Program-made: the position numbers and the translations under genes | Notes under the pieces: generated by a model | Databases searched by the model: none | The model's input: the letters and a program-made list of their open reading frames with translations, nothing else | Told to the model about the DNA's origin: nothing | NCBI GenBank assembly: GCA_930982035.1 | Contig: CAKNJL010000003.1 | Coordinates: forward strand, 858-64,857 | Direction of reading: 5' to 3' | Source of the DNA: an uncultured Clostridium sp. | GTDB taxonomy: Bacteria; Bacillota; Clostridia; TANB77; CAG-508 | DNA: 64,000 nucleotides | In this document: one piece after another, positions 16,958-52,310 of the stretch | How positions within the stretch are numbered: the first letter of the stretch is position 1 | Layout: every line of letters begins with the position of its first letter

Positions 16958-18229
16958 TTATATTTCCTCTTCTTCTTCAAACCAATTAAAACTACTAGAA
17001 TTCTTATTTTTCAAATACCATTCTTTTATAGCTTGTTTTGATAAACTCTTTTTCCAACCTTTTATTTTTCTTGGGTGCTTTATATTATTAGGTCTAGTCA
17101 TATTTGCTAATATATCAATTGCTATTAATGTAATAGAGTTATTATCCAACCTGCTATAATCCCTATAATTATCGCTATAAAAATTGTCTTTATTTTGAAA
17201 GCCATATTTTTTTCCTTGTATTTCTCTTCTTGATGTATAAATTCGTTCATCTTGTCCGTAACAATTGTTTCCACATTCTCTATCAATTTTTCTTGTAAAT
17301 CGTTCATAATGTTCTGTATTTCTTGCTTGTCCTTTTTCAAAGTTGTCCTTATTTCGTTTATATCTTCTGTCGCTTGTTTGTTCCAAATTATCATTTCTGT
17401 TATTATATCTGGATCTAGTAACATATATTTCATTATTATTGGTGTTTGTGTCATTTGTTGTTCTTCCGGTATATGTATTTGATTTTTCTTCTTTAATTCT
17501 TCCATTGATGGCATTTTCCATCTCCTCCTTTAAATATTTTTTATCATTTAATTTATTATCTCTACATTTCATTCCCTCAGGTGTTGTATAAGTTATATAT
17601 TTTCTTTTTTTAGTCCATAAAACTTGATATCCTAATTTATTCATATTCTTAAAAAATTCGGTTTTATTTTTACTTTTTTCTAATGAATAATCAATGGCAT
17701 TTGCTAATTTCATTTTCCAACTTTGCCCTTTTAATGCTACTTGATATTCATTTTTATTATATATTCCTTGATATTTTTTCTTTTCTATTATTTCTAGTCC
17801 CTCTTCTTTACAGAATTTATCGGAATAATCTTTTACTTTTTGCATATCATTTTTTGATTGATTAAATTTCTTTCCATTTTCAAAATTAACAGAATTTACA
17901 ATCAAATGATTATGTATATGCTTTCTATCAGTATGTGTAGCAACTAATACTTGAAAACCTTGAAAATAGTTTGCAAGTTTTATTCCTATTTCATGTGCTT
18001 TTTGAAAATCTAAATCATCTTTTGGACTAAATGATTGAACAATATGTATATATTGCCTTCCTCCATTTTTATTATAAAATTCTTTAACTGTTTTCATTTC
18101 TTCCAAACAACTATTGGCAACACAATCTTTTCCTGTTATTAAATTCGCATTTGTTTTATCTGTCCTTGTAACATAATCTATTATCGTTTTTAACTCTGCT
18201 TTTGAATTAGTAAATTTAATAATTGCCAA
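16958..18229 (-). CDS. relaxase/mobilisation nuclease (MobA/MobL family)
   Basis: HIHIVQSF...HTDRKHIHNHLIVNSVN three-His motif of MOB relaxases. Confidence 0.8.
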   Translation of the reverse strand: MAIIKFTNSKAELKTIIDYVTRTDKTNANLITGKDCVANSCLEEMKTVKEFYNKNGGRQYIHIVQSFSPKDDLDFQKAHEIGIKLANYFQGFQVLVATHTDRKHIHNHLIVNSVNFENGKKFNQSKNDMQKVKDYSDKFCKEEGLEIIEKKKYQGIYNKNEYQVALKGQSWKMKLANAIDYSLEKSKNKTEFFKNMNKLGYQVLWTKKRKYITYTTPEGMKCRDNKLNDKKYLKEEMENAINGRIKEEKSNTYTGRTTNDTNTNNNEIYVTRSRYNNRNDNLEQTSDRRYKRNKDNFEKGQARNTEHYERFTRKIDRECGNNCYGQDERIYTSRREIQGKKYGFQNKDNFYSDNYRDYSRLDNNSITLIAIDILANMTRPNNIKHPRKIKGWKKSLSKQAIKEWYLKNKNSSSFNWFEEEEEI

Positions 18230-46784: not shown

Positions 46785-47987
46785 TTATTCTAATATATCA
46801 GATACAACTCCTGAACCAACTGTTCTACCACCTTCACGAATAGCGAATCTTAATCCTTTTTCGATAGCGATAGGTGTAATTAATTCAATTGTCATTGATA
46901 CGTTATCACCTGGCATAACCATTTCTGTTCCAGCAGGTAATTCAATAACACCTGTAACGTCTGTTGTTCTGAAATAGAATTGTGGTCTATATCCATTGAA
47001 GAATGGTGTATGTCTTCCACCTTCTTCTTTAGTTAAAACGTATACTTCTGATGTGAATTTTGTATGTGGATGAATTGTTCCTGGTTTACAAAGAACTTGA
47101 CCTCTTTCGATGTCTTTTCTATCAACACCTCTTAATAATGCTCCTATATTATCTCCAGCTTCTGCTTGATCTAATAATTTTCTGAACATTTCAACACCTG
47201 TAACAACTGTTTTTCTTCTTTCAGTTGTAAGACCGATGATTTCAACTTCGTCTTGTAATTTAACTGTTCCTCTTTCTACTCTACCTGTAGCAACTGTTCC
47301 TCTACCAGTAATTGTGAATACGTCTTCTACTGGCATTAAGAATGGTTGGTCAACTGGTCTTTCTGGTGTTGGGATATAGCTATCAACAGCTTCCATTAAT
47401 TCTTTGATTGGTTGATATACTGGATCATTAGGATCTGTTGATGTACTTTCTAATACTTTTAATGAAGATCCTTTAATCATTGGAATTTCGTCTCCTGGGA
47501 AACCATATTCTGTTAATAGGTCTCTAACTTCCATTTCAACTAATTCTAATAATTCTGGGTCATCAACCATATCGCATTTATTTAAGTAAACAACGATATA
47601 TTTAACTCCAACTTGTCTAGCAAGTAAGATGTGCTCTCTTGTTTGTGGCATTGGACCATCAGCTGCTGAAACAACTAATATTGCTCCATCCATTTGAGCT
47701 GCACCTGTAATCATGTTTTTAACGTAGTCAGCATGTCCTGGGCAGTCAACGTGTGCATAGTGTCTTTTATCTGTTTCATATTCTACGTGAGCTGTGTTGA
47801 TTGTGATTCCTCTTGCTTTTTCTTCTGGAGCTCCATCGATTTGATCATAAGCTTCATATTTAGCTTTTCCTAATAATGATAAATATTTTGTAATAGCTGC
47901 TGTTGTTGTTGTTTTACCATGGTCAACGTGTCCGATTGTACCAATGTTAACGTGTGGCTTTGTTCTTTCAAATTTTGCTTTTGCCAT
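46785..47987 (-). CDS. tuf: elongation factor Tu
   Basis: [18 protein letters not shown]; 400 aa. Confidence 0.97.
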
Positions 47988-48149
47988 TTTTTTATTCCTC
48001 CTTTTAACTTAGGTAAAGGATAGCTTTCATGTGCTTCCTTTCCTTTTTTTATATAATTTAAATTTAATGACGTAAGTTTCTTTTAGTATAAGCATTTTAT
48101 AACATTTTATTGAAAAAATCAAGCATTTTTCATAAATATTATAAACTCC

Positions 48150-48420
48150 TATCTATAATCTCATTTTTAATTTTGTATAAAATTGCTATAATGTGCATTT
48201 TCGAAATGTTATTCAAGCCGAAGGCGTACGTTGTGTACGTCAAAGTTTGAATAACATAGCAAAAATGTGCAAGATAGTGATTTTAGAAACCTCTATTTAA
48301 AATTTTGTATAAAATTGCTGTAATGTGCATTTTTGAAATGTTATTCAAGCTGAAGGCGTACGTTGTGTACGTCGAAGTTTGAATAACATGGCAAAAATGT
48401 GCAGGACAGTGATTTTAGAC
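48150..48420 (-). repeat. two tandem ~130-bp copies of structured intergenic repeat family B between fusA and tuf
   Basis: (ctatttaaaattttgtataaaattgct.taatgtgcatttt.gaaatgttattcaagc.gaaggcgtacgttgtgtacgtc.aagtttgaataacat.gcaaaaatgtgca) x2; nested hairpins; minus-strand loop gccUUCGgc. Confidence 0.7.
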
Positions 48421-48424
48421 AAAA

Positions 48425-50506
48425 TTAGTCTTTTTTAGCACGAGACGCAACAATCTGCTCAAATACAGATTTTGGTACTTCTTCATAATGAGAAGGTTCC
48501 ATTGAATAAGTTCCTCTACCTTGTGTTTTAGAACGTAAATCTGTTGCATAACCAAACATTTCAGATAATGGTATAAATGCATGGATTTCTTGCATTCCAT
48601 CATTACCATCCATACCTTCCATTCTTCCTCTTCTTGAGTTTACATCTCCAATAACATCTCCCATATATTCTTCTGGAACTGTTATTTCAACTTTCATGAT
48701 TGGCTCTAATATAACTGCTTTAGCTTGTTTACAACCTTCTTTGAAAGCCATAGATGCTGCAATTTTGAATGCCATTTCAGAAGAGTCAACTTCGTGGTAT
48801 GAACCGTCAACTAATGTACATTTGAAATCTATAACTGGGTAACCAGCTAATATACCACTTTCTGCTGCTTCTCTCATACCTTGTTCAATAGCTTTGAAAT
48901 ATTCTTTAGGAACTGCTCCTCCAACGATTTTGCTTTCGAATTCAATTCCTTTACCTGGTTCTAATGGTTCCATTTCAAACCAAACATCACCATATTGTCC
49001 TTTACCACCAGATTGACGAATAAATTTACCTTGAACTTTTACTTTATTTCTTATTGTTTCTTTGTAAGCAACTTGTGGTTTACCAACATTACATTCAACC
49101 TTGAATTCTCTTTTTAATCTATCAACGATGATATCTAAGTGTAATTCACCCATACCTGCAATGATAGTTTGTCCAGTTTCATGGTTTGTATATGTTTTAA
49201 ATGTTGGATCTTCCTCTGCAAGTTTTGATAGCGCAATTCCCATTTTTTCTTGAGCTACTTTATCTTTAGGCTCTATTGCTATATCGATAACTGGCTCTGG
49301 GAATTCCATTGATTCTAGTATAACAGGTGCATTCATATCACATAATGTATCTCCTGTTGTTACTTCTTTTAATCCTACTGCTGCTGCGATATCTCCAGCA
49401 TATACTTTTTCGATATCTTCTCTATGATTTGAGTGCATTTGTAGAATTCTTCCTATTCTTTCTTTTTTATCTTTATTAGAGTTTAATACAGTAGAACCTG
49501 ATTCTAATGTACCTGAGTAAACTCTAAAGAAACATAATTTTCCAACAAATGGGTCTGTTGCAATTTTAAATGCTAATGCTGCAAATGGTTCTTTATCATC
49601 AGTTTTTCTTTCAACTTCATTACCATCTAAATCAACACCTTTGATATGTGGTATATCTAATGGTGATGGCATATAGTCAACTATAGCATTTAATAATTCT
49701 TGAACACCTTTGTTTTTATATGAAGAACCACATGTTACTGGAACTATTGTGTTATCAATTGTTCCTTTTCTTAATCCTTTTTTGATTTCTTCCTCTGTTA
49801 GTTCTTCACCATCTAAATATTTCATCATTAATTCTTCATCTTGATCTGCAACAGCTTCTATCATAATATCACGATGTTTTTTTGCATCTTCTATCATATC
49901 TTCTGGAATATCACATTCCTCTATTTCTCTTCCTAAATCATCTTTATGAATAAAAGCTCTCATTTTAATTAAGTCAACAATTCCTTTGAAATTGTCTTCT
50001 GCTCCAATTGGTAATTGGATAGCTATAGCGTTTGCTTTTAATCTATTTTTTAATTGATCAATACATAGTTCAAAGTTAGCTCCTGTAACATCCATTTTGT
50101 TAACATATACCATTCTTGGAACTTTGTATTTATCAGCTTGTCTCCAAACTGTTTCTGTTTGTGGTTGAACACCACCTTTGGCAGCCAAAACTGTAACTGC
50201 TCCGTCAAGAACTCTTAGAGATCTTTGAACCTCTACTGTAAAGTCAACGTGTCCAGGTGTGTCAATAATATTGATTCTATTATTGTTCCAGAAACATGTT
50301 GTGGCAGCAGATGTAATTGTAATACCTCTTTCTTGTTCTTGTTCCATCCAGTCCATTGTTGCTGCACCCTCATGAACTTCTCCTATTTTATGAGTTTTTC
50401 CTGTATAGAATAATATTCTCTCTGTTGTTGTTGTTTTACCAGCATCAATATGAGCCATTATTCCTATATTTCTTGTTCTTTCAAGTGGGTATGCTCTTCC
50501 TGCCAT
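48425..50506 (-). CDS. fusA: elongation factor G
   Basis: [17 protein letters not shown], 693 aa. Confidence 0.97.
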
Positions 50507-50710
50507 TTTTGTATTTCCCCCTCTCTATATTTAAAATTCACTAAATTCGTTTTTAGCGTTGTCAAACTTCTCAAAAATATTTTCAATATACAAAAGTATT
50601 ATTTCAAATATTTTTGCTCGTTTTCCTAGCTAAAATTCGAATTTATTAAATTTTATTGTTTGGATAAATTTTATTTTGTAATTTTTAAATTTTGATTTAA
50701 AATGGTAAGA

Positions 50711-50800
50711 TGTGCATTTTTGATAAATAAGACAAGCCGAAGGTGTACATTTGTACATCGAGGTTTGTATTATTTAGCGAAAATGTGCAGATTGCCGTTT
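50711..50800 (-). repeat. family B repeat copy between rpsG and fusA
   Basis: gatgtgcatttttgataaataagacaagccgaaggtgtacatttgtacatcgaggtttgtattatttagcgaaaatgtgcag; stem changes compensatory vs other copies. Confidence 0.65.
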
Positions 50801-50812
50801 TCAATCAAAATT

Positions 50813-51293
50813 TTACCATTTATAATGTGCAAAGGCTTTGTTTGCTTCTGCCATTCTATGTGTATCTTCTTTTTTCTTAAATGCTCCACCGTTTCCGTTT
50901 ACAGCATCTATTAATTCTCCTGCTAATTTTTCAGCCATTGTTTTTTCATGTCTGTTTCTAGCATAAGTTACAATCCATCTTAAACCTAAAGTTTGTCTTC
51001 TTTCAGGTCTAATTTCTAATGGAACTTGGTATGTTGCACCACCAACTCTTCTTGCTTTAACTTCAAGAACTGGCATAACATTTTCTAAAGCTGCTTCAAA
51101 AACTTCTAGTGGATTTTTTCCTTCTTTTTCTTTTATGATGTCAAATGCATCATATACGATTCTTTGTGCTACAGATTTTTTACCATCAAGCATAATATTA
51201 TTTACTAATTTAGTAACAACTTTGCTATTATATATTGGATCTGGTAACACATCTCTTTTTGCTACATATCCTTTTCTTGGCACTATTCTTCCC
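50813..51293 (-). CDS. rpsG: 30S ribosomal protein S7 (GTG start, MPRKGYV...)
   Basis: RBS aggaggg then GTG; track ORF extended upstream to an ATG without RBS. Confidence 0.9.
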
Positions 51294-51565
51294 TCCTTAA
51301 ATATCTTTGTCAGGGGACACACCTTTCTTATTAGATATCTCACTTGGGTTAAGGTATGTCCCCTCCCCTTGTGAATATATAATGTCATATTTGATGTTTC
51401 CTCCTTTATTGAATACTCACTAGAGTATTCTAGGTACTCTGAAAAGTTTCCTTTCCCGTATAGTGCTATATATTCTATCTAAATTTAAGTACCTTAATTT
51501 AGCAAGAGTACAAGCACTAGTTCTTTTTAATTTGTTTTGTTTAAAATAAAGCAAATTAGGTATAT

Positions 51566-51648
51566 TGTGCATTTTTGATAAATAATACAAGCTGAAGGCG
51601 TACTTCTTGTACGTCAAAGTTTGGATTATTTAGCGAAAATGTGCAAGA
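51566..51648 (-). repeat. family B repeat copy between rpsL and rpsG
   Basis: tgtgcatttttgataaataatacaagctgaaggcgtacttcttgtacgtcaaagtttggattatttagcgaaaatgtgcaag. Confidence 0.65.
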
Positions 51649-51670
51649 TGCCTGATTTCATTTATTTTAA

Positions 51671-52084
51671 TTATTTTTTAGGCTTCTTAGCCCCATACTT
51701 AGAACGCGCTTGCATTCTGTCTTTAACACCTGCTGTATCTAATGTTCCTCTGATGATATGATATCTAACACCTGGAAGGTCTTTTACCCTACCACCTCTA
51801 ATTAATACAACACTGTGTTCTTGTAGGTTATGTCCTATACCTGGGATATAAGATGTAACTTCATAACCATTTGAAAGTCTAACTCTGGCAACTTTTCTTA
51901 ATGCTGAGTTTGGCTTTTTAGGTGTAACTGTTTTTACAACTGTACATACTCCTCTTTTTTGTGGAGCTCTGTTGTTTGTTAATCTCTTATTTTTTGAATT
52001 CCATCCATGTTGCAATGCTGGAGATTTTGATTTTGTTACTCCTGTTTGTCTTCCTTTTCTTACTAATTGATTAATTGTTGGCAC
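51671..52084 (-). CDS. rpsL: 30S ribosomal protein S12
   Basis: [13 protein letters not shown], 137 aa. Confidence 0.97.
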
Positions 52085-52310
52085 TTAAATTTCACCTCCT
52101 GAATTTTTAATTTTTATCTATATTTATATGAAACTTTTTTGTAATATTTTATAGATATTTGTTTCATATAAAATAAATATACCGTTACGGAACTGCATAA
52201 AACATGCAATCTATCATAACGGTATATATTTTATCATTTTTATGTTGATATGTCAATGAATTTTTTCATTTTTTCAAACTATAAATTACGTTTTTTCAAA
52301 TTTGAAGGAA

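Follow-up and report, generated by a model that had tools for sequence, protein, structure and literature searches.

Palindromic repeats of a single polarity abut stop codons in presumed highly expressed operons of uncultured gut Clostridia

The REP/BIME and REPIN elements of Escherichia coli and Pseudomonas are interspersed palindromes found downstream of coding regions, often between co-directional genes, and are co-transcribed as imperfect hairpins; REP dimers fold to approximately 100 nt, and mRNA-stabilizing roles have been proposed for them. Correia/NEMIS of Neisseria, ERIC/IRU of enterobacteria, and RUP/BOX/SPRITE of pneumococcus are 100–160 bp long and palindromic over their full length, with presence/absence polymorphism between strains and a BOX-like modular build. 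In these respects both groups resemble the repeat family described here, named after its TGTGCA boxes, of which four copies lie in the str operon of a 64,000-nt stretch (hereafter, the window) of contig CAKNJL010000003.1 from an uncultured Clostridium sp. GTAG-/CGTC-tagged REP superfamilies have not been reported in Firmicutes (PMC3733652), and the pneumococcal BOX, RUP, and SPRITE repeats are over-represented between convergent genes, with approximately 61% on the leading strand (PMC3049150). Our analysis revealed that the well-paired, G-rich strand of the clostridial element is antisense to the operon mRNA.

The initial annotation of the window placed four copies after rpsL, rpsG, and fusA, the last followed by a tandem pair, and all four were found on the + strand, where the core pattern CAAGCYGAAGGYGTAC has four exact matches against 0.28 expected by chance. 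Scores below are from a covariance model (CM) built from these four copies and from minimum free energy (MFE) folding, and the stop offset is the position at which the upstream stop codon starts, counted from the element's first base. Element D, in the rpsL–rpsG spacer (51542–51670, +), scored 136 bits on the + strand and 62.6 on the − strand, with MFEs of −56.7 and −29.2 kcal/mol; its hairpin spans 51541–51670, and the 3′ end abuts the rpsL stop codon (51671–51673; offset −3). Element C, between rpsG and fusA (50687–50814, +), scored 134 against 65 bits and −59.6 against −29.2 kcal/mol; its inverted repeat (I1) has 59-nt arms, and the TTTTA at its 3′ end shares bases with the rpsG stop codon (50813–50815; offset −1). 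Element B, the first of the tandem pair in mRNA order (48300–48428, +), gave the highest values (148.9 against 71.5 bits; −65.0 against −39.1 kcal/mol) and overlaps the fusA stop codon (48425–48427; offset +1). Element A, the second tandem copy (48168–48296, +), lies 132 nt from B and is 93% identical to it over 125 nt; its outermost stem is partly decayed, and it scored 123 bits with filters off, with MFEs of −45.7 and −32.0 kcal/mol. With filters off, the CM found no copy beyond these four in the whole 64-kb window.

Each copy is a single imperfect hairpin of approximately 128 nt with arms of 49–59 nt, rather than the element of approximately 80 nt originally proposed. From the outside in, it consists of an AU-rich outer stem, often with the termini TAAAAY...RTTTTA, a second stem, two (A)UGUGCA boxes, a pairing of a U-run with an A-run, a hypervariable middle stem, a CAAGC/GUUUG pairing, an internal loop with GAA opposite RA, and an apical stem, GGCGUAC/GUACGUC, closed by a variable loop of 4–5 nt. 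The ATGTGCA motifs had been taken for the ends of the repeat. They do flank the copies (the first box of D reads TTGTGCA), but the hairpin runs approximately 25 nt further on each side, and the two UGUGCA boxes pair mutually via tandem U·G/G·U pairs. The inner GTACG..CGTAC stem of the initial annotation is present as GGCGTAC/GTACGTC, while its CUUCGG/CUUCAG tetraloop is not a terminal loop: it is the reverse complement of the internal-loop region, and in the minus-strand folds it stays unpaired in the internal loop that separates the apical stem from the middle stem, while the actual terminal loop lies between GTAC and GTAC. The apical hairpin is conserved, whereas the middle and outer stems are hypervariable yet self-complementary. 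A small open reading frame (ORF) starting from the ATG of ATGTGCA was rejected, as it is not conserved among copies.

Pairing and strand statistics were calculated from 35 distinct copies and 50 consensus pairs. Paired cells made up 95.3%, compared with 78.7 ± 0.6% in shuffles and 35–47% in slid controls; both-sided changes occurred at 32 of the 50 pairs, and the covariation score was 0.445 against 0.150. None of 500 shuffles reached the observed paired fraction, number of both-sided changes, or covariation score, and the four window copies alone have both-sided changes at 18 of 54 pairs. The covariation is real as a pattern, and it withstood the enlargement of the sample that had been proposed as a check. 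The stems quoted as variable but complementary do vary in that manner; however, they are fully complementary only on the + strand and with G·U counted, and their G·U positions are C·A mismatches on the transcribed minus strand.

The structure had been assigned to the str mRNA, but the opposite strand pairs far better. Folded as RNA, the window copies reach −45.7 to −65.0 kcal/mol on the + strand (z-scores −7.4 to −13.3), compared with −29.2 to −39.1 kcal/mol on the transcribed minus strand (z-scores −4.8 to −8.7, still significant). Across the 35 copies, the mean folding energy of the element strand was −56.7 kcal/mol against −28.3 for the mRNA strand with RNA parameters, and −29.4 against −18.1 kcal/mol with DNA parameters, and the element strand was the more stable one in 35 of 35 copies with either set. 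RNAalifold gave −46.0 kcal/mol for the element strand and −18.1 for the mRNA-sense strand. The cells of the consensus structure comprise 1413 Watson–Crick, 251 G·U, 21 A·C, and 61 other combinations, so that 95% pair on the element strand and 82% on the mRNA strand, and seven positions are G·U in 20–34 of the 35 copies. Composition or mutation bias was rejected as the source of this G·U asymmetry: the GC skew of the element strand is +0.32, while that of the same strand around it, including the neighboring non-repeat spacers, is approximately −0.24. The deamination biases that are known affect the sense strand.

The family is not confined to the str operon, as its first description as an element embedded there had implied. 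CM searches covered the window, the loci of relatives (≤20 kb each), and gut metagenome contigs, and yielded 63 copies (39 distinct sequences) in relatives and metagenome contigs at 78–149 bits. No match was found in 720 kb of unrelated genomes, the negative-control DNA being 120 chance matches to the loose pattern CAAGCNGAAGGNGTAC in high-G+C genomes. Looking up the exact RpsL protein led to ten loci, all in genomes of uncultured “Clostridia bacterium / Clostridium sp.”, and 23 loci came from a metagenome scan that used an apical-domain pattern; a scan of viral contigs yielded none. The host clade is uncultured gut Clostridia with approximately 27% G+C. Beyond str, copies occupy rplK|rplA, rplN|rplX, S14|rpsH, rpsH|rplF, and rplF|rplR in the L11 and S10/spc operons, as well as fabG|fabF, gap|pgk, nifU-like|GGGtGRT, and a site after one unannotated gene. 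All 12 distinct sites are intercistronic or downstream of a gene, and all have one polarity: the strand that pairs well runs antisense to the flanking genes. Wherever a non-tandem copy has an identifiable upstream gene, the stop offset as defined above is −4 to +1, and the stop codon usually falls inside the terminal TAAAA. The niche of the family lies between co-directional genes of presumed very highly expressed operons; no copy was found in approximately 60 kb of the window or in the non-operon flanks of the ten relatives, and a related species has short spacers and no copy in its whole S10–spc cluster.

Presence in the str operon varies between relatives. Absence of the elements from the str operon of close relatives had been named as a refutation of selection on RNA structure, and it applies to some sites only: the rpsL-site copy is present in all ten relatives from the RpsL look-up, seven have the rpsG-site copy, two have it in degenerate form, and L121 lacks it, its whole rpsG–fusA spacer being 27 bp, and a copy after fusA occurs in none of the ten. 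In three loci (L123, L128, and L129), rpsG is followed by two copies in tandem. The rpsL copy is missing in L132 and L139, where it looks deleted, because approximately 17 nt of the distal arm remain.

The stems are also mosaic. The flanking genes of L121, L123, L124, and L126 are 97–99.8% identical and their fourfold-degenerate sites 93–100% identical; the rpsL-site elements of these loci nevertheless differ by 21–29%, with middle-stem identity of only 39–48% (L122 was used in place of L126 in the element comparison, as both carry the same rpsL-site copy). Conversely, the middle stem of window copy D is 100% identical to that of L121, though the fusA genes differ by 11%. Paralogues within one genome also share modules: C is like D, A is like B, and the rplF|rplR copy of L136 is like its rplN|rplX copy. 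Because module sharing is incongruent with flanking-gene identity, the stems appear to behave as exchangeable modules, a pattern that could have arisen from conversion between copies, re-insertion, or allelic recombination between strains. Of the proposed compensatory substitutions, the complementarity stands, while the changes are largely of whole stem modules incongruent with the flanking genes and less probably compensation in place, point by point, although allelic recombination between strains could give the same pattern. The patchy presence in relatives and the mosaic modules suggest that the elements behave as insertional, recombining repeats.

The element was compared with known classes. 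Rfam had no match in the whole window at the gathering threshold, and its E-value scans returned only generic long-hairpin matches to miRNA precursors, e.g., mir-5014 at 44 bits against a threshold of 101; plasmids and phages contained no match to the family. An intrinsic terminator was rejected, since no terminator-like site was found on either strand of 47900–52300, and the stem base is AU-rich, unlike a G+C-rich stem followed by a U-tract. A promoter carried by the element was not evident in a consensus scan (18 sites against 20.1 in shuffles); columns 20–25 (TAnnnT) are nearly invariant, and no −35 element is conserved. An operon-specific ribosomal-protein autoregulatory leader was rejected because the element also occurs in the fab, gap–pgk, and nifU-like operons and is missing at the same str sites in relatives. 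A GTAG-/CGTC-tagged REP was rejected as well, as there is no GTAG tag and the CGTC is paired inside the apical stem GGCGTAC/GTACGTC. No Y1_Tnp domain was found in the precomputed Pfam lists of L121–L162 or among 10 window ORFs scanned. Terminal inverted repeats, as in DDE-type MITEs (Correia/RUP), are present, with termini TAAAAY...RTTTTA, and the element is palindromic throughout. An integron attC site was rejected, since only the AAC...GTT of RYYYAAC...GTTRRRY fits, in the TAAAAC...GTTTTA subfamily, and the flanks are core operons. The family thus appears to be new and previously undescribed, and the original REP-like label had indicated the right general neighborhood, that of a structured repeat family.

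Our best explanation, which we hold with about even confidence, is a REP/MITE-like family of palindromic interspersed repeats with strict polarity that is co-transcribed as the weaker hairpin. The pairing would be maintained for a single-stranded form of the G-rich strand, most simply a DNA or RNA intermediate of repeat propagation or homogenization, and an element would be tolerated or produced only when oriented so that the operon mRNA receives the weaker complement, which is C-rich and G-poor. The mRNA-sense copies, which immediately follow the stop codon, still have folding energies of about −21 to −45 kcal/mol and lack a U-tract; such a hairpin probably acts as a 3′-exonuclease barrier or processing point between cistrons and not as a terminator. 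Several observations weigh against this explanation. The loci examined contain no autonomous partner (transposase or recombinase), and comparison of the empty L121 site with the filled sites of L122 and L153 gave no clean target-site duplication; TA occurs at both ends of most copies but is inseparable from the terminal motif. The terminal sequence varies between subfamilies while remaining complementary, which is unexpected if a transposase reads conserved terminal repeats. As the searches covered the window, loci, and contigs, the genomes may hold further copies that lie in different contexts or are oppositely oriented. Finally, typical parasitic repeats, such as pneumococcal BOX, RUP, and SPRITE, shun operon interiors and accumulate between convergent genes (PMC3049150); the niche found here is opposite and points to host function or targeted insertion, between which a REP/MITE-like origin does not distinguish.

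Selection might instead act on the operon mRNA, with the hairpins as cis-acting stabilizer or processing elements whose C·A mismatches are deliberate weak points that, e.g., avoid termination or RNase III cleavage or define cleavage sites. The elements do sit exactly at stop codons inside presumed highly expressed polycistronic operons, the sense strand folds far better than its shuffles, and seven mismatch positions are kept in 20–34 of the 35 copies, with no drift to Watson–Crick pairs. Moreover, no U-tract follows the hairpin, and transcription would therefore read through. However, nearly all of the conserved mismatches are G·U on the other strand (251 vs 21), which also has much the better alifold energy (−46.0 against −18.1 kcal/mol on the sense strand), and it is on the antisense strand that the conserved internal loop is rich in purines (GAA opposite RA), its sense-strand counterpart being rich in pyrimidines. 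The element can also be dispensed with: close relatives lack it at the same sites, as does a related species. We therefore regard selection on the sense RNA as rather unlikely.

We find it similarly unlikely that the hairpin is a functional single-stranded structure of the strand opposite the mRNA, whether leading-strand-template DNA or antisense RNA, tied to very heavy transcription. It may in one form be a mobile element inserting into the single-stranded DNA exposed where replication meets arrays of RNA polymerase, and in another a one-way insulator keeping antisense transcription out of the most expressed operons. A functional antisense RNA, either an insulator that stops or destroys spurious antisense transcripts or a small antisense RNA gene, would account for the strand asymmetry and for G·U pairs, which are typical of RNA. 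The T20-A21-N3-T25 columns resemble a −10 hexamer and are nearly invariant, with TG upstream in about half of the copies, stretches rich in U lie beyond copies B and D on the + strand, and the copies would be enriched in the most expressed operons of a very AT-rich genome, where spurious promoters are to be expected. The absence of a conserved −35 element or promoter (18 sites against 20.1 in shuffled sequence) and of a terminator, the AU-rich stem base, the lack of a following U-tract in most copies at other sites, and left flanks that are unrelated between sites make such an RNA quite improbable. We are more doubtful still about folded single-stranded DNA as a strand-specific recombination or insertion substrate, like integron attC or the ends of IS200/IS605 and REP, inserted or kept on the leading-strand template, which would be single-stranded where replication meets heavy co-directional transcription. 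The asymmetry holds with DNA parameters in 35 of 35 copies, and strict polarity, the position right after the ORF stop, conserved boxes around a variable self-complementary center, tandem arrays, module exchange, and confinement to presumed highly transcribed operons would all suit such a substrate. The + strand of the window has a negative GC skew, and the element strand is therefore probably the leading-strand template. This polarity is the reverse of that in the IS608 paradigm, where the lagging-strand template holds the active strand. In addition, no integrase or HUH transposase lies beside any copy in the loci examined, the sole HUH protein seen in the window being a relaxase 30 kb away; the attC R-box consensus is unmatched in most subfamilies; and the flanking genes form core operons in canonical order, not cassettes.

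The str operon of the window lies on the minus strand. Its first gene, rpsL (51671–52084), encodes ribosomal protein S12, as judged from its ORF, its translation, and the Pfam Ribosom_S12_S23 domain on the identical protein in relatives. It is followed by rpsG (50813–51283), whose 156-amino-acid product, S7, has its true start at the GTG at 51283, is colinear with relatives over 156 amino acids by tblastn, and contains the Ribosomal_S7 domain. The gene for EF-G, fusA (48425–50506), was assigned from its ORF and homologues named elongation factor G [Clostridia bacterium], and an exact-protein look-up of the window EF-G returned no record; the last gene, tuf (46785–47987), encodes EF-Tu, as indicated by the ORF, its translation, and Pfam GTP_EFTU on homologues. 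The probable operon promoter (52228–52256, −) consists of TTGACA, a 17-nt spacer, and TAAAAT with TG before the second hexamer, agreeing with 11 of 12 consensus positions; it is the best consensus match of the region, and its assignment is putative on that match only.

The spacers hold further sequence. The rpsG–fusA (50507–50686) and fusA–tuf (47988–48167) spacers each have approximately 175–180 nt more non-coding sequence beyond the repeats, with a 17-nt inverted repeat at 50572–50616 in the former. In the rest of the rpsL–rpsG spacer (51284–51541), the mRNA-strand sequence agtgcttgt...aggtacttaaatttag...agcact...cttttcagagtacc is conserved in seven of the seven relatives compared and may be an S7 (rpsG) leader. 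This spacer also has an extra insert of approximately 100–130 nt (roughly 51300–51430) with a GGGGACA/TGTCCCC stem that is found in the window only, relatives being without it. Just outside element C, at 50825–50831, the last rpsG codons (GCA CAT TAT) read TATAATGTGCA on the + strand and thereby reproduce the box motif, probably by coincidence, because relatives have ATAGTGAGCA there.

Elsewhere in the window, a candidate fifth copy at 60274–60431 was rejected as a different, symmetric palindrome. This near-perfect inverted repeat lies between an SNF2-family helicase gene and a GIDA-family (trmFO-like) gene, contains GATTTGGGGACGGAGAAAAA twice per arm with an AT-rich center, has equal scores on the two strands, and bears no relation to the TGTGCA family. 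At 16958–18229 (−), approximately 30 kb from the str operon, an ORF encodes a MobA/VirD2 relaxase domain (HUH nuclease), which suggests an integrated mobilizable element; no link to the repeats was found.

In one relative (L154, 3290–20540; also L155), nearly every spacer of the S10–spc–alpha cluster is 110–350 nt long and holds a long hairpin. Only one of these, at rplN|rplX, belongs to the TGTGCA family. At least seven spacers hold a second hairpin family, composed of heptad repeats (GGTTGGA TGTTAGA ... TCTAACT TCCAACT); a third lies at L23|L2, L5|S14, and L6|L18 and has an apical GGCGTAC..GTACGTYGA hairpin in common with the TGTGCA family. All of the L154 families have the same polarity, and the occurrence of several unrelated hairpin families of one polarity in the S10–spc spacers of a single relative suggests a general niche rather than the accident of one family.

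Many short metagenome contigs start or end in or beside an element (L131, L135, L136, L142, L144, and L152), and most contigs carrying RplE homologues are shorter than 5 kb. Contig ends at elements fit repeats that break short-read assemblies, and the repeats appear to do so at ribosomal-protein operons of their hosts, which are abundant, uncultured human gut Clostridia. The hypervariable stems could serve as strain markers. If the element were merely a selfish repeat, it would still be unusual, with a single orientation at the stop codon inside the most expressed and constrained operons, the reverse of classical bacterial MITEs. The strand asymmetry provides a handle on whether an RNA or a single-stranded DNA form keeps bacterial palindromic repeats.

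Compared with REP units, which are 20–40 bp long with a stem of 5–13 bp and an unpaired GTAG or CGTC tag, the clostridial element is one 128-nt hairpin in which CGTC is base-paired; it also differs in its strict polarity, in having no RAYT partner that we saw, and in sites that, among those found, are exclusively inside operons. With Correia/NEMIS, ERIC/IRU, and RUP/BOX/SPRITE it would share orientation-dependent effects on transcripts, which are predicted here. In contrast to the pneumococcal repeats, 12 of 12 sites share a single polarity, each within an operon or immediately downstream of a gene, and unlike the conserved terminal inverted repeats of MITE-like elements, the outer stems covary. 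Neither a parent IS nor a clear TA duplication was found in the loci examined.

Integron attC sites, e.g., the 123–126-bp repeats of Vibrio cholerae, are generally known as imperfect palindromes of similar length that start at or over the ORF stop. They too have conserved boxes around a variable self-complementary center and a single orientation, and the strand that functions in folded form is the bottom one, which is antisense to the ORF. Unlike attC sites, the clostridial loci have no integrase or cassette array, and they are flanked by core operons, ribosomal and metabolic, whose gene order is canonical. The RNase III hairpins of phage T7 early mRNA are likewise long, with internal loops, and lie between the cistrons of a heavily expressed polycistronic RNA, where they leave a 3′ hairpin on the upstream message, an outcome that cleavage is predicted to have here. 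The T7 sites are selected on the sense RNA, whereas in the clostridial family the sense strand is the poorly paired one.

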